Source: Promethearchaeota archaeon
Lineage (GTDB): Archaea; Asgardarchaeota; Lokiarchaeia; Sigyniarchaeales; SOKP01
NCBI GenBank assembly: GCA_016840165.1
Contig: JAEOSU010000072.1
Location: 64,001-128,000 of the forward strand
Direction: 5' to 3'
DNA: 64,000 bases
The notes below the pieces were generated by a model. The model did not search any database, was not told the origin of the DNA, and saw only the letters and a list, made by a program, of their open reading frames with translations. Position 1 is the first letter of the stretch. Each line of letters begins with the position of its first letter. Both the position numbers and the translations under genes were made by a program. This document shows, one piece after another, positions 4,100-18,573 of the stretch.

Positions 4100-6085
4100 T
4101 TATGAATTTTCCTGCCAAAATTCGAAAAGTAAGTGAGTAATAATCCCTTTTCTGTCAGGTATAATCTGGATTTCATTTCTAATCCATTCCGAAATCCATC
4201 GATATTTTTGTTTGAAGCGGGAATCTAAAAAAACGATACTTCCTTTATCTTTAATTTTTCTAATCGGTCTTCCAGAAGCTTGATTAGCTCTCTGTATCGC
4301 AGGATAAAGATAGGCAAAATTCCATCCTTGCTTGTCAAAAACATCGTCATAGTAAGCAATCTTAGCGTCTACTCTAGGAGATGGCAAATGATATGGAAAA
4401 CCAGCTATTATAACGGAATTCATAGTATCCCCCGGGTAATCCTCTCCTTCTGAATTTCTTCCCCCACACACTCCTAATAAAACTGCGCCGTTATAAGGTT
4501 TTTTAGCATGTGACTTAAAATTTTCAACCAAAAAAGCATTTTCAGATGCAGATAATTCCGGATCTTCAAGAAAAAGTTGCTTATCATGCTTTCTGATAAT
4601 AGGTTCAATTCCATGTTCTAATAGAGCATCCAGTATTTTATAAGATGCACAAAAAATGCCAATATTAGCAGGAGTGGATTCAATTACCTCCTCTATTTTG
4701 GAAATCATTTTAAGATACATTTCTTTATTTCGGTTAGCTCGTCGAGTATCTACTCCCTCAGCGATCAACGCTTTAATATGGTCTTTATCAAAAGGAGAGT
4801 TTGCTATTATCCCTTTGAAAGGTTTGGAAGCATTTTTAATACCAATTAAATTGGCATAAACATATGGATTAGCTGTCCCTGAAAGATTGATACAACTATA
4901 GCATGTATTTAATACAGGGATTACTATCTCACGGGGATCTAGTGCAATAATATCAAGCGAAACACTAATTTTCCCTTTTTTTTCATGCAAATTATAAGAA
5001 AAGAAGTAATTTTTTTTGGTGCAATTTTCTATCCATTTTAATATGAAGTCTGCTAATGATCCTACGTAATCTCTGGCTATTTCTCCATTATCTACTCTCT
5101 GTTGATGTAAATAAGTCCCGAATTCTTTTAAATCTATTATAAAATTTTTAAATTCCGTCAAATCGGATTTTCCTAACTTACTAAACATCTTAGTAATGAA
5201 CTTTACAGGTTCGATCCCCTTTTCGGTTTGTTTCAAAGAAGTTTTGATATTATTCAGATGGTTCATAAGCATTCTAACAAAACTTTGCATTTCCTGCGAA
5301 GAACGATACATTTCTAAATCTCTTAAACATAATCGTAATAAATATGGAGTAATTCGGTCAGAATTTAGGTCTGTTGCAACATCAATAAGATTATGGCATT
5401 CATCAATCACTACGATACAGTTATACAACTCTTTCCCGATAAAATTCATAAAATTTTCTCGAATTTCAGGATTGAAAATCCACTGATAATTGCAGATGAT
5501 AACTTTCATCTCTTCGAGAAGGTATTTACTCAAAAAATAGGGGCACAGTTTTTTTTCTGAACAAAAATTAAGAAGATCTTCTGCGTCAATAGGTTGATTA
5601 AATAGTTCTGGAGCTAAAATTGTGAGCCGTTCATTTTGATCTTTTTTCTTTAGAAGATTTATAAAATAGCTACAATTATTATTTTTCCTTAAATCACCGC
5701 ATACTGCCATCGCCTCTTTTGGATCAAGTTTTAAGGAGAGCAATGTTTTATTTAAACACATTTCATTTCGGCCTCTTATCGATAACCCATTTACTCGGAC
5801 ATTCTCATTGTGATTTTCAAGAAAATTAGAGATTTTCCGTAGTTCCTTTATAATTCTGGTATTTTGCGAATGTGTTCTACACATATAAAGTATTTTCAAA
5901 TCGTTTTGAAGTATTAAGGGTAATAATGCGGATAAGGTGATAACTGTTTTTCCCGTTCCATTTGGGGCAACTAGCAATGTGATTTTTTTCTCTTTTGAAG
6001 CTAACTCTACTTGTTTAATAATCTCTTCTTGTTCTTCCCTAAATTCCTCATACGGAAAAAAATTCAAGTAATTAATTTTGTACAC
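4100..6085 (-). CDS. xpd: XPD/Rad3-family Fe-S DNA helicase
   Basis: Q motif, APNGTGKT Walker A, Fe-S cysteines (MCL, VCG, NCS, LCPY), DECHN, SEGxD, QASGRPIR motif VI. Confidence 0.92.
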   Translation of the reverse strand: MYKINYLNFFPYEEFREEQEEIIKQVELASKEKKITLLVAPNGTGKTVITLSALLPLILQNDLKILYMCRTHSQNTRIIKELRKISNFLENHNENVRVNGLSIRGRNEMCLNKTLLSLKLDPKEAMAVCGDLRKNNNCSYFINLLKKKDQNERLTILAPELFNQPIDAEDLLNFCSEKKLCPYFLSKYLLEEMKVIICNYQWIFNPEIRENFMNFIGKELYNCIVVIDECHNLIDVATDLNSDRITPYLLRLCLRDLEMYRSSQEMQSFVRMLMNHLNNIKTSLKQTEKGIEPVKFITKMFSKLGKSDLTEFKNFIIDLKEFGTYLHQQRVDNGEIARDYVGSLADFILKWIENCTKKNYFFSYNLHEKKGKISVSLDIIALDPREIVIPVLNTCYSCINLSGTANPYVYANLIGIKNASKPFKGIIANSPFDKDHIKALIAEGVDTRRANRNKEMYLKMISKIEEVIESTPANIGIFCASYKILDALLEHGIEPIIRKHDKQLFLEDPELSASENAFLVENFKSHAKKPYNGAVLLGVCGGRNSEGEDYPGDTMNSVIIAGFPYHLPSPRVDAKIAYYDDVFDKQGWNFAYLYPAIQRANQASGRPIRKIKDKGSIVFLDSRFKQKYRWISEWIRNEIQIIPDRKGIITHLLFEFWQENS

Positions 6086-6180
6086 CAGTGATAATTATTA
6101 TGTAGTATTGAAGGATGAGTTAACATTTATATTAGCATAGAGTATAAAAGTTTAATTATTAAGGACATTTAAATAAAAAA

Positions 6181-7059
6181 ATGAGTGAAAAGAATTCTGA
6201 TCAGCCAGAATTACTCTTACGAGAAGTATTAAATGAAACAATTTTACGAGATGTATTGCTTTTTATCCTTCTATACTTATTTATGTTAGCACAAAATTGG
6301 GATAATTTATTGCTTCTTTTATTTCCAATTATCACTTTTTGTTTTGCGCTCTTTTTTCGTATTATTGGTACTAATAAACATAGATTAATTGATGAGCAAA
6401 ACCTAATTTCTTATAATCCTCTTGGAGCAGAAAAAAAAAATGCTGATCGATTAATCTTTATATCACTTCTAGAACTTATTTTGCTTTTTTGGATTGGCGC
6501 AGAATCATTATATCATCCTCAGCTAGTGGATGATTTTGGTTTTTATTTTAGTCTAATTTACTTTATGCTTTATTCATTCGGATTTTTCTGGATTTTTTTT
6601 GGTATCTGGAATAATTGTAAAATTATAACTAATTTGAATGGTTTGGAAAATAATGAATCAGGATATAAAAAATTGTTAATATCAGAGCTAGGATTTAATA
6701 AAATTAAATTAATTAGCTATCTTAATATTTTAATTTTTATTGCTTTTAATCTCATAAATACTATTTTAACCATATTGGTTTTTTTTGGAGCAGAAATAGG
6801 ATTTCCCTCCAACCTTCCTGGTTCGGGTATAGAAGATTCGCAACCATTATTCCTATCCTATAGTGTTTGGATAATGTTAATTGCTTTTCCTATTGCGAGT
6901 ATTTTCTATCTAATTTCAATTTATAGAGATGTAAATAGCTTTTCTGAAATAGAATTAAAATCAAAAATTAACTCTCTACCCAAGGAAATTCAAGAGAAAA
7001 TCATAAATAGCCTTAAAGCCATAAACCAAAAACTAAATAAGAATTCCACTGAAGAATAA
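6181..7059 (+). CDS. Multi-pass membrane protein of unknown function
   Basis: 292-aa ORF with about six hydrophobic segments. Confidence 0.8.
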   Translation: MSEKNSDQPELLLREVLNETILRDVLLFILLYLFMLAQNWDNLLLLLFPIITFCFALFFRIIGTNKHRLIDEQNLISYNPLGAEKKNADRLIFISLLELILLFWIGAESLYHPQLVDDFGFYFSLIYFMLYSFGFFWIFFGIWNNCKIITNLNGLENNESGYKKLLISELGFNKIKLISYLNILIFIAFNLINTILTILVFFGAEIGFPSNLPGSGIEDSQPLFLSYSVWIMLIAFPIASIFYLISIYRDVNSFSEIELKSKINSLPKEIQEKIINSLKAINQKLNKNSTEE

Positions 7060-7118
7060 GAAAAAACGTAAAATAACGTAAACGTTTAAATAAAAAAATA
7101 AAAATAAACGTAGGATCT

Positions 7119-7214
7119 ATGAAAAAATATGTAAAGATCATATTATTTTTCTATTTAGTAATGGGCATTTTTCTTGGAATAAACATAAAAATGTATGATA
7201 GAATTATTGAGTAA
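7119..7214 (+). CDS. Putative 31-aa single-pass membrane microprotein
   Basis: ATG..TAA ORF MKKYVKIILFFYLVMGIFLGINIKMYDRIIE preceded by AGGA. Could be chance in AT-rich DNA. Confidence 0.25.
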   Translation: MKKYVKIILFFYLVMGIFLGINIKMYDRIIE

Positions 7215-7276
7215 TAAAAATTTATTAAAACTAAACCTATATCTATATTATTTATTGGAGTAAGATTCGAAGGGAC

Positions 7277-7804
7277 ATGGAACAAAGAAAGAAATTTCTA
7301 TTCAAAATAGTAGTTGTCGGAGATGGAGGGATAGGGAAGAGCACTATGATTCAGCGGCTTTTAACGGGAAAATATATTGCTCAGAAGATCACAATTGGAA
7401 CAGATCTCGCCAGTTATAGTGTAAAATTCGAGAATATCGATGTGAGGTTACAGATATGGGATTTTGCTGGTGAGAAAAGGTTCCGCTTTTTTCTCCCGAA
7501 TTATTCACGTGGTGCTCATGGATGTCTTTTATGTTACGATCTTACACGATATTCTAGTTTTGAACATCTACCCGAATGGTATAATATCGTTCATGATAAT
7601 AGCAATCCTATTTTTGTTCTTATTGGGGAAAAATATGATCTTGCTGAGATAAAACGTACGGTTTCTCGAAAAGATGCTGAAGAGTTTCAAAAAGAATACG
7701 ATATTCCTTACTTCTATGAGACTTCAAGTAAATCAGGATTTAATAATAATATAATTTTTGAAAAACTTACTAAAACCATTTTAGAGAAAAAAGATCTGTT
7801 ATAG
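7277..7804 (+). CDS. Rab-like small GTPase (Ras superfamily)
   Basis: G1 GDGGIGKS, G2 TIG, G3 WDFAG, RFRF..NYSRGA Rab-like segment, G4 EKYD, G5 ETSSK. Confidence 0.93.
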   Translation: MEQRKKFLFKIVVVGDGGIGKSTMIQRLLTGKYIAQKITIGTDLASYSVKFENIDVRLQIWDFAGEKRFRFFLPNYSRGAHGCLLCYDLTRYSSFEHLPEWYNIVHDNSNPIFVLIGEKYDLAEIKRTVSRKDAEEFQKEYDIPYFYETSSKSGFNNNIIFEKLTKTILEKKDLL

Positions 7805-7869
7805 TCTGTATATTAAGGGTAAGAATCCTAAAACAATCAATTTGGAAAAAAAGAATAAGAAATTTAGAT

Positions 7870-8811
7870 TTATTCTAAAATATCTTTTAATTCGTCAACA
7901 TTTAGTTTTAGATACTTTGCGGTTACTAGATCTTTTCCGAGGAGATTGAGGAAATTTTTCCTTCTCTTCTTATTGAGAAATTTTTTCATCTCACTTAAAT
8001 CTGGTTCTTTATTTGTGATCTCAAGTAATTTGCCTTTTACAGCAGCATCTAATACTTTTTGACCTATATCAGTTCTAATGATTAAGAATGCTTCTCCTGA
8101 ACCTTTAGGAGCACCCCATGGGCTATAAGAGATATCTGAAAATTCACCAGAAAAATCAGTACAGTAAGAGCATCCCGTCATCCCTCCAGAAGAGCATGCA
8201 AAGCCGATCTTTAATGATGTTCTTTCCGCTCCTGTGTTAAAATCTGATACTAAGATTTTTGCTAACCCTTGAAGATGGCATGGATTTCCAATTATACCAA
8301 TGTCTCTTTTCCTGTCTAAGTATGCCTTTCCAATTCCAGTAATTAAGGGCCCCGCATTATCCATTGTTTTCTCGGGAATATAGTTCTTCGCATCTTTTGC
8401 ATTATCCACTACAACTGGAAAAGCAACTGGTGGTTTTTTGCTTTTAGGTTCGCTTAAAACAAAGTGTTTTACCACCCCAGAATTAAATGCTGCAACAACT
8501 AAATTATAGAGAATATTGTCTTTATTTTTAGATTTAACTTGTACAATATCCTTATAAACGCCTACACCTAAATCCACTCGAGTTTGCCCAAACATTTTTT
8601 GTTCAATTTCACTTACTGGTAAGAATGTTCGGGGGCATGCATTATAGCATAAACCTATTGTCTCTGCACATTCATCCACGACATAAGCCTCGCCTGTTTC
8701 TTGACTGAAGTCCATATGCGGACAAAAAGCATTGCAACTTCCACAATGTATGCATAGACCTGCATAAATTACCTCATTTTCGAGGTCTTGGCTTGATTTT
8801 TCAACTTTCAT
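7870..8811 (-). CDS. Coenzyme F420 hydrogenase/dehydrogenase beta-subunit (FrhB/FdhB)-like Fe-S protein, degenerate
   Basis: N-terminal CxxCxxCxxxCP and CYNACP, GNPCH, GCSYCTDF..E.SDIS, IIRTDIG. Confidence 0.82.
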   Translation of the reverse strand: MKVEKSSQDLENEVIYAGLCIHCGSCNAFCPHMDFSQETGEAYVVDECAETIGLCYNACPRTFLPVSEIEQKMFGQTRVDLGVGVYKDIVQVKSKNKDNILYNLVVAAFNSGVVKHFVLSEPKSKKPPVAFPVVVDNAKDAKNYIPEKTMDNAGPLITGIGKAYLDRKRDIGIIGNPCHLQGLAKILVSDFNTGAERTSLKIGFACSSGGMTGCSYCTDFSGEFSDISYSPWGAPKGSGEAFLIIRTDIGQKVLDAAVKGKLLEITNKEPDLSEMKKFLNKKRRKNFLNLLGKDLVTAKYLKLNVDELKDILE

Positions 8812-8875
8812 ATTTTTTTACTCAAAGATATTTTTTGAAATTATTAAGGAAAATCTACTATTGCAAATAAATTTA

Positions 8876-8891
8876 GTGTGAAATTTCACAC
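8876..8891. promoter_or_regulatory. Perfect 16-bp palindrome GTGTGAAATTTCACAC, candidate operator of the FrhB-like gene
   Basis: Exact inverted repeat about 65 bp upstream of the 8811 start, in an otherwise AT-rich spacer. Confidence 0.5.
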
Positions 8892-8935
8892 AGTCTTTTT
8901 TGTCAAGAAAAATATAGAAATAAATGAAAAAAAAT

Positions 8936-10912
8936 TTATTTTTTAATTCTGGTATGATTCCTTTTATAAATAACGATTACGGCGAAAAGACTCAATGTAA
9001 AAATAATGACAAGAAGATCGTAGCCAGGAATTCTGGAATCAATGATGGCAATGTTAGTTGTTTCGAAGTAATCAATATAATAATTTGGAACTTGAACAAG
9101 GACGAAATCCTTTACATCACTATAATCTAAGCTTATCCTATTGGGAAGTTGATCTACATCTATAGTGAGAGTTGTTGATCCATTAATCCAATGAAGTTCT
9201 TCGTATTCTAAATATGAGAATTGTCTATAAATCTGAACTGGAATCAATTGCGAGTAAGTATATTGATGCAAATGCTCGTTAATATCATAGATGGTAAAAG
9301 TTAGCATGTTAGTAGCCAAATCGAAAACAGCATTAGTTATATCATATTCAGGAAGATACGCGTTATCAAACCAGGGATAAAAGAACCAATCTAGTGAATC
9401 GCCGGTAATTATTTCGAACATATCTACCAGATCTGATAAATCTGCAATTTCAAAATAAAACTCTCGAAAGAATAATCTTAAAGAGTTAATGAAGGCTGTG
9501 TGTCCCAGAGTTTGGCGTAGTTTTTCAAGAACTGTATTCGCTTTTGTATAGCCAATGTACCAGTAATTTGTCCCACTAATTTCACATTCGGGAACTGATT
9601 GATTGATTTTATTTGGTAATCCCCATTCTATAGAGTATTGGCGCACTTTCTGCAGCCCCCAGTAAGGTTCAAAAATATGCCAATCAGGATGGTACACATC
9701 TTTGTACCAATCTGTTACCCAGCAGACAATTCCCTCATCTAAAAATCCCCAGTCAACCTCATCAACACCTAAAAGACTATAAAACCATTGATGTGCTGTC
9801 TCATGAGCAATAATACTCTCTAAATACCAATCTCTGCCATAACTGCCCGTATAATAATCTGCGGATTCGGTTATATAAACTTGCAGTGGATATTCCATCC
9901 CTCCATAATAAGTATATTCTTGGACTACATTAAAAGTTGAATAGCAATAGTCTCCAAAGGTGTTGTGATAAAGACTAAAAGCATCTACTGCAACATCTAG
10001 GGCAAATTCATGCCAAAGATCATTTGATTTCGAAAGAAAATAACAAGAAACATTGACATCAATTCCAGGTATTATATAGGATTCTATTTCAAAATATCGG
10101 GATGCGGAAAAGGTCGCTTCCCTCACAGGTAAGTGTGGATTATAGTGTAGGATGCTTCTTCCTGCTGTAGTTGTGTTATCCAATAATTCTCCAGTAGCTG
10201 CAACCTTCATTTCTTCGGGAACATTAATTATCAGATCATAATAAGCCATGTCAAAATAGAAAGGATCCCCTACTAGTAAATACGGATCAATATTCCATCC
10301 ATCATATTCGTCGTAGACACAAGGTTGAGGATAAGCACTGGCAAATTTGAAAATTCGTGTGTCATTATAATCCCACCCGTGTTCATTTGCTCGATCAATT
10401 CCTCCATCTGGCAATGTGGTGTTGAATGAAATGATAAACGATGTCCGATTAGTTGGTTGTAAAATTGATGTGAGGTTAACCCACATAAGTTGAATTCCTG
10501 AAAATACTTCAAAATCTAATTGTTGCCGAGGCTCTTCGACCGTAGTCACGTTTAAAATGTCCATGTTACCTGCTCTCGTATTAAATTGCATGCCACTTGG
10601 ATAAATGTGAAATGGTAGTTGAGTAAAATTTACTGGATCATTATTATAAAAATCGACTGTTAAGTTTCCCTCAACAGTAGACGAATCTTCATTCAAATAA
10701 AGAGAAAGATTATAGGAGGAGAATTCATAGCCCGTAAAATTTCCCTTCGAGAACTCATCATAGTTGGATGTAGTTAGTTTTGAATCAGGAGTATTTTCCT
10801 TTAATATATATGTTGATTGCATTCCATTTGGGACAAATATCATACCTAGAAATAAACAGTGAATGAAAACAATTAAAAGGGTTAAATTTATGCACTTAAT
10901 CTTATAATTCAT
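8936..10912 (-). CDS. Secreted M1 family aminopeptidase with Loki-CTERM/PGF-CTERM-like anchor
   Basis: N-terminal signal/TM, GGMEY exopeptidase motif, HETAHQW and LDEG zinc ligands, C-terminal IPGY + TM + basic tail. Confidence 0.92.
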   Translation of the reverse strand: MNYKIKCINLTLLIVFIHCLFLGMIFVPNGMQSTYILKENTPDSKLTTSNYDEFSKGNFTGYEFSSYNLSLYLNEDSSTVEGNLTVDFYNNDPVNFTQLPFHIYPSGMQFNTRAGNMDILNVTTVEEPRQQLDFEVFSGIQLMWVNLTSILQPTNRTSFIISFNTTLPDGGIDRANEHGWDYNDTRIFKFASAYPQPCVYDEYDGWNIDPYLLVGDPFYFDMAYYDLIINVPEEMKVAATGELLDNTTTAGRSILHYNPHLPVREATFSASRYFEIESYIIPGIDVNVSCYFLSKSNDLWHEFALDVAVDAFSLYHNTFGDYCYSTFNVVQEYTYYGGMEYPLQVYITESADYYTGSYGRDWYLESIIAHETAHQWFYSLLGVDEVDWGFLDEGIVCWVTDWYKDVYHPDWHIFEPYWGLQKVRQYSIEWGLPNKINQSVPECEISGTNYWYIGYTKANTVLEKLRQTLGHTAFINSLRLFFREFYFEIADLSDLVDMFEIITGDSLDWFFYPWFDNAYLPEYDITNAVFDLATNMLTFTIYDINEHLHQYTYSQLIPVQIYRQFSYLEYEELHWINGSTTLTIDVDQLPNRISLDYSDVKDFVLVQVPNYYIDYFETTNIAIIDSRIPGYDLLVIIFTLSLFAVIVIYKRNHTRIKK

Positions 10913-11001
10913 AGTAAAAAATTACCGATTAGGTTATTAATATTCTTATAAGTTAAGTAAACTAATAAAATAATGCATTCAATAAGAAGGGAGAGAAATA
11001 G

Positions 11002-11298
11002 TTAACATTCTTCTTTATTGCTATCGTTTGAAAGGAAACGAGAACAAGTATCATCCGTTTTCTTGATAATATGTTCTCTATCTTTCCAAGTTATCCAGGT
11101 ACCGCCAGATTTCTCGAAATGAAAGCCCTCATATTGATCCACCATACTTTTGAGTGTTTTTTTGATAAAACTCCATGAGAATCCAGTTCTATCAACTAGT
11201 TCAGAAATAGCGATGGGATGATTAATCTCCAAATCTTGATTATAAAATTCAATAATCCTTTCTAATCCTGATTTTGGTGTTTTAACTTCGTGAGTCAT
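11002..11298 (-). CDS. Small putative winged-HTH DNA-binding protein
   Basis: ISELVDRTGFSWSFIKKTL helix-turn-helix pattern followed by a beta-wing. Confidence 0.65.
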   Translation of the reverse strand: MTHEVKTPKSGLERIIEFYNQDLEINHPIAISELVDRTGFSWSFIKKTLKSMVDQYEGFHFEKSGGTWITWKDREHIIKKTDDTCSRFLSNDSNKEEC

Positions 11299-15762: not shown

Positions 15763-16061
15763 ACTGTTTCCCGAAGAATAAGAATATGTTTCATATAAGC
15801 GATTTATGATTATATAAATGAGTATCTAGGTTAAAAAAGTACGCTTTTATTAAAATTTCGGGCGTTTTTTAATAAAAATACGAAATCATAAGACTTATAA
15901 GGTGGTATTTAAGTTTTACATAACGATACGACATTCAGAGATTTAATTGTTGAATTATTCTATAGTTACATTTATTTTTTTATTTTTAATAATCTCTAAT
16001 ATTTATTACTAAACAAACCATACTTAATTCTAACAGAAGTATATTGGAATTTTTATTTAAT

Positions 16062-17285
16062 ATGAGAAAAGTTGCGATTATTGGTGTGGGACACACTAAG
16101 TTTGGTGTCTTAAAAGAGAAAGATTTGCTTGATTTATTGTGCGATGCTTCACTAGAAGCTCTGGAAGATTCAAATACAACAGAAAAAGAATTTGATTCAG
16201 TATATGTTGGAGCTATGTGTCCAGGGGAATTTAATCATGTTTCAGGAATTTCAAGTGCTTTGGTGGACAGGATAAGTTTATTGCCTGCTGCTTCAGATCG
16301 GATTGAAAATGGACCCGCCAGCGGAGGTTCAGCTATAAAGGCAGGATTCCAAGCAATAGCTTCAGGAATGAGTGAGTTAGTATTAGTAGTGGGAGGAGAA
16401 AAGATGACTCATATTGATATTCCAGGATTTATAACTTCAATAGTCGCGACAATCACTCACTCAGAAGCTGAAAGAATCCATGGAGTTTCCTTGCCATCGT
16501 TCGGTGGATTACTGACTAGGGCTTATTTAGAAAAGTATAATGCGAAACTCGAATGGATTTCTGATATTGCCATTAAGAATCATAAAAATGGTACTTTAAA
16601 TCCAAACGCACACTTCCAGCGCAGTATCGAGGATTTTATGAAAAGTGCCATAAAAAAGGGAAAAGGAGACTGGCAGAGTGTCTATGAATTTCTTGAAGAC
16701 GATAAGGTAAATCCCATAATCGCAGATCCCTTACGATTATTTCATATTTGTCCTATTTCCGATGGAGCTGCCGCCTTGGTGCTCTGTAATGCTGAAACAG
16801 CAAAAAGATATTGCGATACTCCGGTCATTATTTCAGGCATTGGTCAAGCGACGGATACTCATATAATCTATGAACGAGAAGAGATGACTGAACTCAAAGC
16901 GCTGAAGATTGCCTCCTCTCAGGCATATAGAATGGCAAAAAAGAGTCCAGATGATATCGATGTATGTGAATTGCATGATGCTTTTGAAATTTTAGAGGCT
17001 GTACAAAGCGAAGATATGGGGTTTTTTGAAAAAGGTGAGGGGGCAAAAGCTGCCCATGAAGGTTTAACTGAAATAGGAGGTAAGATTCCGGTCAATCCTT
17101 CAGGAGGGTTGAAAGCACGAGGACATCCCTTAGGAGCCACTGGTATTGCTCAAGTGGTTGAATTATTTTGGCAATTACGAGGAGAAGCAGGAAAAAGACA
17201 AGTTGAAGGTGCTGAAACGGGGATAACATGCAATTTTGGTGGATTTGGGAATAATATATTATCAATATTGGTAGAAAGAATCTGA
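16062..17285 (+). CDS. Archaeal/SCP-x-type thiolase-fold protein lacking the nucleophilic Cys
   Basis: ENGPASGG (Cys position is Pro), GGEKM, PISDGAAA, ELHDAF, VNPSGGLKARGHPLGATG. ATG at 16062 preferred over TTG at 16044. Confidence 0.9.
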   Translation: MRKVAIIGVGHTKFGVLKEKDLLDLLCDASLEALEDSNTTEKEFDSVYVGAMCPGEFNHVSGISSALVDRISLLPAASDRIENGPASGGSAIKAGFQAIASGMSELVLVVGGEKMTHIDIPGFITSIVATITHSEAERIHGVSLPSFGGLLTRAYLEKYNAKLEWISDIAIKNHKNGTLNPNAHFQRSIEDFMKSAIKKGKGDWQSVYEFLEDDKVNPIIADPLRLFHICPISDGAAALVLCNAETAKRYCDTPVIISGIGQATDTHIIYEREEMTELKALKIASSQAYRMAKKSPDDIDVCELHDAFEILEAVQSEDMGFFEKGEGAKAAHEGLTEIGGKIPVNPSGGLKARGHPLGATGIAQVVELFWQLRGEAGKRQVEGAETGITCNFGGFGNNILSILVERI

Positions 17286-17356: not shown

Positions 17357-18022
17357 TTAATAAATCACTATAAATTGAAGTTCTGATCCATTTTTATCAT
17401 AACATTTAATATTGTTTAAAGTATATGGAAATCCTACAATAAAGTTAGCACTATTCCGTTTAAATACATGATTTAAATCTTGTAATGAAGGGTTTAAATT
17501 ACCAGACGGATGTGAGTGAATTGTTCCTTGATAATACTGATTTGTAGGGAGTCTAGTAGGAAAAAATACACTTGAACTCCTTGAAGTGATCGCACCTGGT
17601 GGTAAAATAAACTCTGTAAATATTTCGTTTACCATCTTCAGGATGCCTAAAAATTCTTTTGGATGATGCTCACGACATAAAGCTAAAAATCCATCTAATA
17701 ACTCCCTTTTTATTTTAACTTTTTTTGATTGTAGATTTTCTAAAATAGAAACAATTTCATTAATAACATCTAAAATAGACTTAGTCTTACTTCTTTTCCA
17801 GTTTTTTAAAGAAACGACATCATTATACAACTTTTTATATATTTTCCCAGTTTGATTAATAAGCTTAACTCTTGGTTTTTTGGGATATTTAGAATAATCA
17901 ATATCAACAATAATCCCCTTGTTTAGTTCAATTTTAACATGGGAAATATTATTTCCATAAGTTTCAGTATTAGGAAAATATTTTATAATATTTTGATATT
18001 GTTTCTCAATTTTTGTAAACAT
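17357..18022 (-). CDS. JAB/MPN+ (JAMM) isopeptidase fused to an N-terminal UBC/UEV/RWD-like domain
   Basis: C-terminal PKE...HSHPSGNLNPSLQD matches E-HxH-x7-S-x2-D. N-terminal DY..YP.KP.V and W...SILDVINEI resemble the E2 fold. Confidence 0.85.
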   Translation of the reverse strand: MFTKIEKQYQNIIKYFPNTETYGNNISHVKIELNKGIIVDIDYSKYPKKPRVKLINQTGKIYKKLYNDVVSLKNWKRSKTKSILDVINEIVSILENLQSKKVKIKRELLDGFLALCREHHPKEFLGILKMVNEIFTEFILPPGAITSRSSSVFFPTRLPTNQYYQGTIHSHPSGNLNPSLQDLNHVFKRNSANFIVGFPYTLNNIKCYDKNGSELQFIVIY

Positions 18023-18216: not shown

Positions 18217-18573
18217 ATGAATTTAATGTCAAACAATAAAAAAATAAAGGCAGTAAAATGTCATAATTGCGGATTAATTCAACATTATTCCCATTTAAGA
18301 TGCCTTAATTGTAAGAGTGAAAGCTTTGAAGATATAGAAGCTACTGGAGGGTGTAGGTTAATTACATTTACCATTTTGACTGCAGTTCCCACAGAATTTT
18401 TAGAGAAGAGGCCATATGGATTGGGGATCGTAGAATTTGAAAATGGGGTGAGAGCTATTGGACAAATCACTACTCAAAAGGATCTTAAAACTGGTATGAA
18501 ATTAAGACCTATATTTAAAGTAATTAAAATGGGTGGAAAGCAAATTCATACTTATCTATTTGAACCTTATTAA
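18217..18573 (+). CDS. DUF35 Zn-ribbon/OB-fold protein (thiolase partner)
   Basis: CHNC...CLNC, PYGLGIVEFENGVRAIGQ. Confidence 0.9.
   Translation: MNLMSNNKKIKAVKCHNCGLIQHYSHLRCLNCKSESFEDIEATGGCRLITFTILTAVPTEFLEKRPYGLGIVEFENGVRAIGQITTQKDLKTGMKLRPIFKVIKMGGKQIHTYLFEPY

Follow-up and report, generated by a model that had tools for sequence, protein, structure and literature searches.

A 221-residue protein encoded on the reverse strand of the window (the whole stretch of 64,000 nucleotides from a Promethearchaeota archaeon that was analysed here) joins two domains in one chain. By its sequence, the gene product is an AfJAMM-type JAMM protein with intact predicted catalytic residues, and in front of the protease domain it carries a domain that is modelled as a UBC fold and predicted to be non-catalytic. 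This is a new domain architecture made from two known folds in one lineage, and it is not an ancestor of the eukaryotic JAMM-UEV complexes. The reading that we prefer, and to which we give a probability of about 0.6, is that the protein would be an active isopeptidase for a ubiquitin-like modifier (Ubl), in which the fused pseudo-E2 domain docks, in cis, either the modifier or part of the apparatus for conjugation or proteasomal breakdown. The coordinates of the gene and its parts are collected in Table 1.

Table 1. Positions of the gene, its domains and its motifs in the window, and of the dead paralogues in related genomes (locus:positions).
Feature	Position	Strand	Basis or remark
Whole gene, 221 aa + stop	17357..18022	-	ORF
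Cys-less UBC-fold (pseudo-E2/UEV/RWD-like) domain, residues 1-100 (predicted)	17723..18022	-	AlphaFold2 model, fold searches
YPKKP flap, residues 46-50; UBC-superfamily YPxxP turn	17873..17887	-	P47, P50 invariant
LKNW, residues 72-75	17798..17809	-	Alignment; L72, W75 invariant
JAMM/MPN+ domain, residues 101-221, minimal AfJAMM type	17360..17722	-	Pfam, phmmer, Foldseek
E123, predicted JAMM general-base Glu (HPxE), within HPKEFLG	17654..17656	-	Aligns with AfJAMM E22; roles per PMC300881
H169-S-H171-x7-S179-x2-D182 = HSHPSGNLNPSLQD; predicted zinc ligands and oxyanion Ser	17477..17518	-	AfJAMM alignment
ILPPGAITS, residues 139-147	17582..17608	-	68-sequence alignment; I139, P141, P142 invariant
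Dead (MPN-) paralogue	L028:5664-6332	-	Sequence
Dead (MPN-) paralogue	L029:6068-6736	+	Sequence
Dead (MPN-) paralogue	L025:6005-6685	+	Sequence
Dead (MPN-) paralogue	L026:5630-6304	-	Sequence
Dead (MPN-) paralogue	L027:5671-6342	-	Sequence

The two domains of the protein

The sequence-only reading of this DNA had placed a complete JAMM motif in the C-terminal ~120 residues, and all five of its residues (E123, H169, H171, S179 and D182) were found there, in a region that matches both Prok-JAB and AfJAMM. The Pfam match to Prok-JAB (PF14464) covers residues 107-194 and is marginal (E 1.1e-5, with 25.8 bits against a curated cut-off of 25 bits). The match to AfJAMM (AF2198; 1oi0, 1r5x), which in 2003 was the first JAMM structure, runs end to end over residues 101-220 in phmmer (E 1e-16) and brings the five residues into register with E22, H67, H69, S77 and D80 of AfJAMM. 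In an alignment of 68 sequences, conservation of the JAMM residues is 90% or higher, and the motif is retained in 115 of 116 full-length homologues. The full-length AlphaFold2 model has a pLDDT of 87 and a pTM of only 0.63, because of which the orientation of the two domains is uncertain; used as a Foldseek query, it returned the MPN fold, with AfJAMM (1r5x_A) as the first match (E 6.4e-9, TM(target) 0.86) and the Caldiarchaeum Rpn11 homologue (CsRpn11), a bacterial Ubl-deubiquitinase, Rpn11, CSN5 and PfJAMM1 as later ones. PfJAMM1 (5ld9, 5lda) was matched by fold alone (E 2e-3), the sequence search up to E 10 being negative, and the JAMM domain is closer to AfJAMM than to JAMM1-type enzymes.

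The likeness to AfJAMM extends over the whole of the C-terminal 120 residues (30% identity in the Foldseek alignment), which are of the same minimal size, and it includes the sole poorly modelled stretch of the protein: the low-confidence loop 141-160, into which the strongly conserved ILPPGAxTS segment runs, aligns with the P41-M60 loop that precedes the zinc site of AfJAMM and is disordered in its crystal. This region may be a segment that binds the tail of the substrate. The C74-C95 disulfide of AfJAMM is not conserved in the fusion. HvJAMM2 has been grouped with AfJAMM as an archaeal type-2 JAMM (PMC4895103), and the likeness of the fusion to type 2 was measured against AfJAMM. AfJAMM and its single-domain Asgard relatives are proteins of ~125-165 aa with no extra domain, whereas the fusion has the 100-residue UBC-fold domain in front; at 221 aa with this additional N-terminal domain it departs from the typical type-2 JAMM and is a derivative produced by fusion.

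Hallmarks of the E2 fold had been noticed in the N-terminal ~100 residues, and the YPKKP segment (46-50), LKNW (72-75) and the SILDVINEI helix are indeed present. The proposed check, AlphaFold and Foldseek on residues 1-100, gave a fold of the UBC/UEV/RWD kind. Modelled alone with 68 homologues, these residues reached a pLDDT of 92.4 and a pTM of 0.84, in the order helix, four strands, two short helices and long helix (elements H4-15, E20-22, E25-32, E38-42, E51-55, H65-73 and H83-99), and the top 50 Foldseek matches in the PDB were all E2 or UEV chains (best E 7e-3, probability 1.00, TM 0.58). With VIA-align against representative structures, the top 50 were again all members of the UBC superfamily (E2, UEV, RWD): 2h2y_B led (Z 9.7, 90 residues, rmsd 2.5), followed by the UEV-like domain of VPS37A (Z 9.5, 90 residues, rmsd 2.7), a Plasmodium E2 (Z 8.9), the GCN2 RWD domain and the Tsg101 UEV (both Z 8.7), the Vps23 UEV (Z 8.5) and the central domain of FANCL (Z 8.1-8.5). 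The RWD domains of GCN2, RWDD1 and RWDD2 lie at Z 7.7-8.7, the Knl1 RWD and chains of BRISC subunits are also neighbours, and in a second alignment, with a top Z of 9.7, rank 50 still had a Z of 7.6, well above the background of 4-5 stated by the tool for that rank. Because the Z-scores are tied within 1, UEV, RWD and pseudo-E2 are not separable by fold. The Cys-less UEVs of Tsg101/Vps23 and Mms2/Uev1 resemble the domain in size and in their UBC fold (95-98 residues aligned at Z 8.0-8.7); full UBC domains have C-terminal helices, whereas the N-terminal domain ends at the crossover helix.

The same relationship is not visible to sequence searches with the domain on its own. Pfam and NCBIfam returned nothing relevant up to E 10, with no match to UQ_con (PF00179), UEV (PF05743) or RWD (PF05773); a profile of 17 N-terminal domains matched no E2, UEV or RWD among PDB sequences, the ESM Atlas gave no usable match, and hhalign against the genome's own E2 aligned the YPKxP segment alone. 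In the 68-sequence alignment P17, I26, P47, P50, L72 and W75 are invariant. The flap has the spacing YPxxP, as opposed to the YPxxxP triple-turn motif of RWD domains, and L72 and W75 are predicted from the sequence to occupy the place of the conserved Trp that follows the active-site loop in E2s. It had also been claimed that the domain lacks Cys and so cannot form a thioester, and the alignment agrees: residues 1-100 are free of Cys, the first of the protein being C116; across the 68 sequences no Cys is conserved between P50 and W75, and Cys occurs only sporadically in the domain (positions 19, 25, 52 and 71, in 1-5 of the 68). An HPN motif is absent from residues 1-100 too, and therefore, lacking both, the domain cannot be a thioester-forming E2.

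Relatives and distribution of the fusion

By word-based search 132 homologues were retrieved, almost all of them 219-226 aa long and annotated from Asgard MAGs; full-length homologues number at least 130 and are essentially all from Promethearchaeota (Loki-type Asgard) MAGs. Since the fusion has been kept across more than 130 homologues, chance is ruled out. A scan of species-representative genomes yielded 72 loci, in which the two-domain matches were all in Promethearchaeota/Promethearchaeia MAGs together with one contig of a bacterial bin, which is taken to be mis-binned; JAMM-only matches came from Thermoplasmatales, Iainarchaeum and others. Within a sample of 301 genomes of the phylum, the N-terminal domain as query gave matches in 55 of the 68 genomes sampled from the window's family and in a few from its sister family. 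The gene was thus not found in 13 of the 68 own-family genomes with this query, nor in 28 with the JAMM domain as query; some of these genomes are at least 98% complete, and the gene may therefore be dispensable. Two-domain forms of 217-242 aa occur in the window's family and the sister family (f1 and f2), one of them a 234-aa protein with YPKKP, the Trp and an intact motif, encoded in a sister-family genome that is complete in a single contig. The JAMM-domain query also detected ORFs of single-domain size, 103-203 aa long and for the most part 124-167 aa, such as one for a protein of 142 aa, at 34-44% identity in matching genomes of four other Asgard families (f10, f15, f21 and f22). The simplest reading of this distribution is that in a single order of Loki-type Asgard archaea a type-2 JAMM orthologue gained a UBC-like domain, and a range this narrow favours parallel invention over ancestry.

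The architecture had not been recognised from characterised proteins in the sequence-only reading, and a description of a pseudo-E2-JAMM fusion was likewise not found in the literature searched. Tromer et al. mention one Uev-like and one RWD-like Asgard protein, and Hatano et al., where the binding of ubiquitin by Asgard UEVs is characterised, do not mention JAB/MPN proteins.

Searching the 301 phylum genomes with the N-terminal domain by tblastn also produced tandem matches inside ORFs of 550-620 aa. These Asgard proteins consist of four UBC-like repeats, each with a [FY]P..P and a W motif, and then a Cys-rich RING-like finger. Pfam assigned repeat 1 to UQ_con (E 6e-11) and repeat 4 to RWD (E 1.4e-7, above cut-off). 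In sequence, the N-terminal domain is nearest to repeats 2 and 3 (hhalign probability 91-97%, E 3e-10 and 3e-9); the match of its profile to the UQ_con-type repeat 1 was weak (E 0.056) and collinear over 85 columns, and there was no match to the RWD-type repeat 4 (E 0.44). Examples of these proteins, in which the tandem UBC-like repeats are Cys-less and the layout is FANCL/RNF25-like, lie at L030:1773-3431(+), L031:2103-3959(-), L032:2147-3829(-) and L034:475-2226(-). With four UBC-like domains and a RING-like finger they resemble the RWD-plus-RING ligases of the FANCL/RNF25 type, whereas the window's protein has a single UBC-like domain and a protease domain instead of the RING finger. More distant whole-protein relatives, P0182 (469 aa) and P0195 (481 aa), combine a zf-AN1 finger, TPRs, a UBC-like domain and a JAMM domain. 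In eukaryotes, AN1 fingers are modules associated with the proteasome and Cdc48. By association, which is not proof, the architectures with RING-linked repeats and with zf-AN1 would place the N-terminal domain in a ubiquitin- or proteasome-type setting. A further TPR-JAMM protein, P0260 (585 aa), was set aside as a relative since it is without the N-terminal domain.

Some related genomes have a second copy of the gene, in which the UBC-like domain is kept and all of the JAMM catalytic residues are lost (E to K, HSH to ISR, and loss of S..D), making these products MPN- pseudo-enzymes. Most genomes with such a dead paralogue also carry an active copy; in G264 and in the sister-family genomes G165 and G237, the searches run found the dead form alone. 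The dead paralogue lies between hypE and hypD in two genomes. A link of the window's gene to hydrogenase maturation was considered and rejected: the hypE-hypD site belongs to the dead paralogue of a few genomes. Neither a dead paralogue nor a multi-repeat RING protein was found in the window's own genome, and therefore neither is an obligatory partner there.

Gene neighbourhood and ubiquitin-type systems of the genome

The host genome (3.6 Mb in 105 contigs, rated 99.7% complete) carries the JAMM gene on contig 54, and the G+C content of the window is ~32%. The gene is monocistronic: downstream, 71 bp separate it from a convergent thiolase gene, and 194 bp upstream of its 5' end begins a divergent gene for a DUF35 OB-fold protein, beyond which lies methylmalonyl-CoA mutase. 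The thiolase-fold gene and its usual DUF35 partner (16044-17285 and 18217-18573 in the window) thus flank a JAMM gene on the opposite strand. In one close relative (L018) DUF35 and the mutase are retained, in unchanged order, on the corresponding side of the JAMM gene, and three further close relatives (L014-L016) have a thiolase gene no more than ~4 kb away from it; one of these also shows a stop-interrupted fragment copy of the gene, of 70 aa (L015:4402-4614(+)), 2 kb upstream of the intact copy. The thiolase/DUF35/mutase neighbourhood is common only to close relatives, the neighbours in other relatives being a methyltransferase, TatD, an M32 peptidase and PfkB. Genomic context was accordingly rejected as a functional clue, the metabolic neighbours being confined to close relatives and differing otherwise. 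No conserved Ubl, E1 or E2 gene was found next to the gene at the homologous loci compared.

Genes for ubiquitin-type systems are located elsewhere. A eukaryote-like ubiquitin operon on contig 58 (L109, G000 contig 58, 93000-109000, with ORFs at 4787-11267), a contig other than that of the JAMM gene, encodes two Ubls (ending in STAG and STAGRLI), a membrane-anchored Ubl, an E1, an E2 that has its Cys, a 277-aa Rpn11-like JAMM protein and a membrane RING-finger protein. The tails of the operon Ubls end in Ala-Gly and not in Gly-Gly, and the three-residue extension of the STAGRLI form would need trimming. In total the genome holds three E1s, two E2s (a second E1-E2 pair is included), several Ubls and several ThiS/MoaD-type genes. 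A ubiquitin match in a frame of 86 aa lies on contig 4, and ThiS/MoaD-type proteins are encoded on contig 54 (at ~169.7 kb and ~303.2 kb) and on contig 58 (at ~44 kb). A role for the fusion as the deubiquitinase of the ubiquitin operon was rejected, because the operon, which lies on a different contig, already includes the 277-aa Rpn11-like JAMM. Ubiquitin is present in every family that bears the fusion, and also in most families without it; because ubiquitin is so much more widespread, this co-occurrence, though consistent, is uninformative.

Candidate roles of the fused domain

In the reading that we prefer, the protein would be a minimal AfJAMM-type ('type-2') active zinc isopeptidase that has acquired a non-catalytic UBC-fold domain at its N-terminus. 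The JAMM domain would cut the (iso)peptide bond at the C-terminus of a ubiquitin-like modifier, which may be a eukaryote-type Ub/Ubl or one of SAMP/ThiS type, as both kinds are encoded in the genome. The pseudo-E2 domain, which appears to be joined to the JAMM domain by one continuous helix with no predicted flexible linker, would serve as a built-in docking module, either for the modifier itself or for a partner from conjugation or the proteasome, and such a partner could be an E2, a RING E3 or an AAA ATPase. The haloarchaeal HvJAMM2 is reported to be required for the proteasome-dependent turnover of a sampylated protein, whilst the purified enzyme was inactive and partners are suspected (PMC4895103); AfJAMM was inactive towards ubiquitin derivatives and the other substrates tried, and has no known substrate (PMC300881). 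Docking in cis would supply what type-2 JAMMs seem to need in trans, and it is because AfJAMM and HvJAMM2 are reported to be inactive alone that a built-in docking module is the best reading. Counting against it are the inactivity of AfJAMM on ubiquitin derivatives, the metabolic and variable gene context, and the operon's possession of its own JAMM. The failure to find the gene in part of its own family, the absence of sequence-level matches between the N-terminal domain and UQ_con, UEV, RWD or PDB E2s, and the uncertain orientation of the two domains count against it as well.

The sequence-only reading had proposed a self-targeting deubiquitinase or desampylase with a built-in ubiquitin-binding module, and such binding is plausible. 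In its specific form, the N-terminal domain would be a true UEV that binds eukaryote-type ubiquitin directly, like those of Vps23/Tsg101 and Mms2, which would make the protein a single-chain, self-targeting deubiquitinase of the Asgard ubiquitin/ESCRT pathway. We regard this form as rather unlikely. It is true that Tsg101, Vps23, the UEV-like domain of VPS37A, Mms2 and Ube2V1 rank high as structural matches (Z 8.0-9.5), that Asgard UEV domains bind ubiquitin in experiments (PMC9192718) and that ubiquitin genes occur in every fusion-bearing family; however, active E2s, RWD domains and FANCL score equally high, less than 1 Z apart, the domain has no Pfam UEV match, and the fusion has a much narrower distribution in the phylum than ubiquitin. 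The gene also shows no synteny with ubiquitin or ESCRT genes, the ubiquitin operon already encodes a JAMM, and the JAMM domain is of the type that failed on ubiquitin derivatives (PMC300881). The presence of RWD, FANCL and Knl1 domains among the structural neighbours speaks for a different role, that of a pure protein-protein scaffold, RWD-like as in the kinetochore, FANCL and GCN2, which would dimerise the JAMM domain or anchor it in a larger complex without contacting the modifier and, where a dead paralogue is present, allow MPN+/MPN- pairing. Such a scaffold would fit the internal repeats of the multi-UBC-like RING proteins as closest sequence relatives, the dead paralogues that retain the N-terminal domain in related genomes, and the view that type-2 JAMMs need partners (PMC4895103), but no partner gene is linked to the JAMM gene, and this role too seems doubtful.

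That the JAMM domain does not act on Ubls at all, being another peptidase or amidase or a biosynthetic trimmer of C-termini with a UBC-like domain unrelated to ubiquitin signalling, is improbable. Prok-JAB does include enzymes outside protein tagging (RadC-like proteins and JAB proteins of cysteine and siderophore pathways), which counts for such a role, as do the thiolase, DUF35 and methylmalonyl-CoA mutase neighbours. AfJAMM, moreover, is without a known substrate (PMC300881). Against this stand the restriction of the metabolic neighbours to close relatives, the fold of the N-terminal domain together with its relatives in RING proteins and zf-AN1 fusions, all of which point to ubiquitin-type systems, and the fact that biosynthetic JAB enzymes too act on Ubl carriers of the ThiS/MoaD type. 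A more specific and speculative proposal, which we hold to be unlikely as it stands, is that the pseudo-E2 might be an intramolecular activator or positioner that makes an otherwise inactive AfJAMM-type protease autonomous and specific for one Ubl or one linkage. The protein would then be an archaeal equivalent, in a single chain, of BRCC36-BRCC45 or of acceptor positioning as by Mms2, and would pair with the dead paralogue where one is present, like eukaryotic MPN+/MPN- heterodimers; if true, the fusion would disclose both the substrate of type-2 archaeal JAMMs and the partner logic that has long been missing for them.

Compared with BRCC36 and BRCC45/BRE, in BRISC and BRCA1-A, the fusion shows both likenesses and differences. 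In those complexes, a JAMM isopeptidase works with UEV-type pseudo-E2 domains, a pairing that the fusion resembles; chains of BRISC subunits (6h3c_C, 6r8f_G) are structural neighbours of the N-terminal domain at Z 6.8-7.4, and the BRCC36 complexes have an MPN- partner, as some relatives of the fusion have dead paralogues. On the other hand, BRCC36 and BRCC45 are separate chains of a multi-subunit complex, whereas the fusion is one chain of 221 aa with a JAMM domain that is not BRCC36-like, and because the fusion is confined to one Asgard order the likeness is one of analogy and not of ancestry. The natural fusion of a recognition fold of the ubiquitin system to an AfJAMM-type protease offers a concrete handle on the puzzle of AfJAMM and HvJAMM2, in that anything bound by the pseudo-E2 domain becomes a candidate for the partner or the substrate still missing for AfJAMM-type proteases. 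The Asgard ubiquitin toolkit gains pseudo-E2 domains combined with JAMM, RING and zf-AN1 modules, along with an MPN+/MPN- duplication, and these pseudo-E2/JAMM/RING combinations parallel the deubiquitinase complexes of eukaryotes.

The fusion is the single AfJAMM-type gene of the window's genome, the other six JAB matches being different proteins. Contig 42 encodes a stand-alone Prok-JAB protein of 183 aa (L007:738-1986, G000 contig 42) that overlaps the end of a DUF4443/PH0730-like gene and has only the motif in common with the 221-aa fusion.
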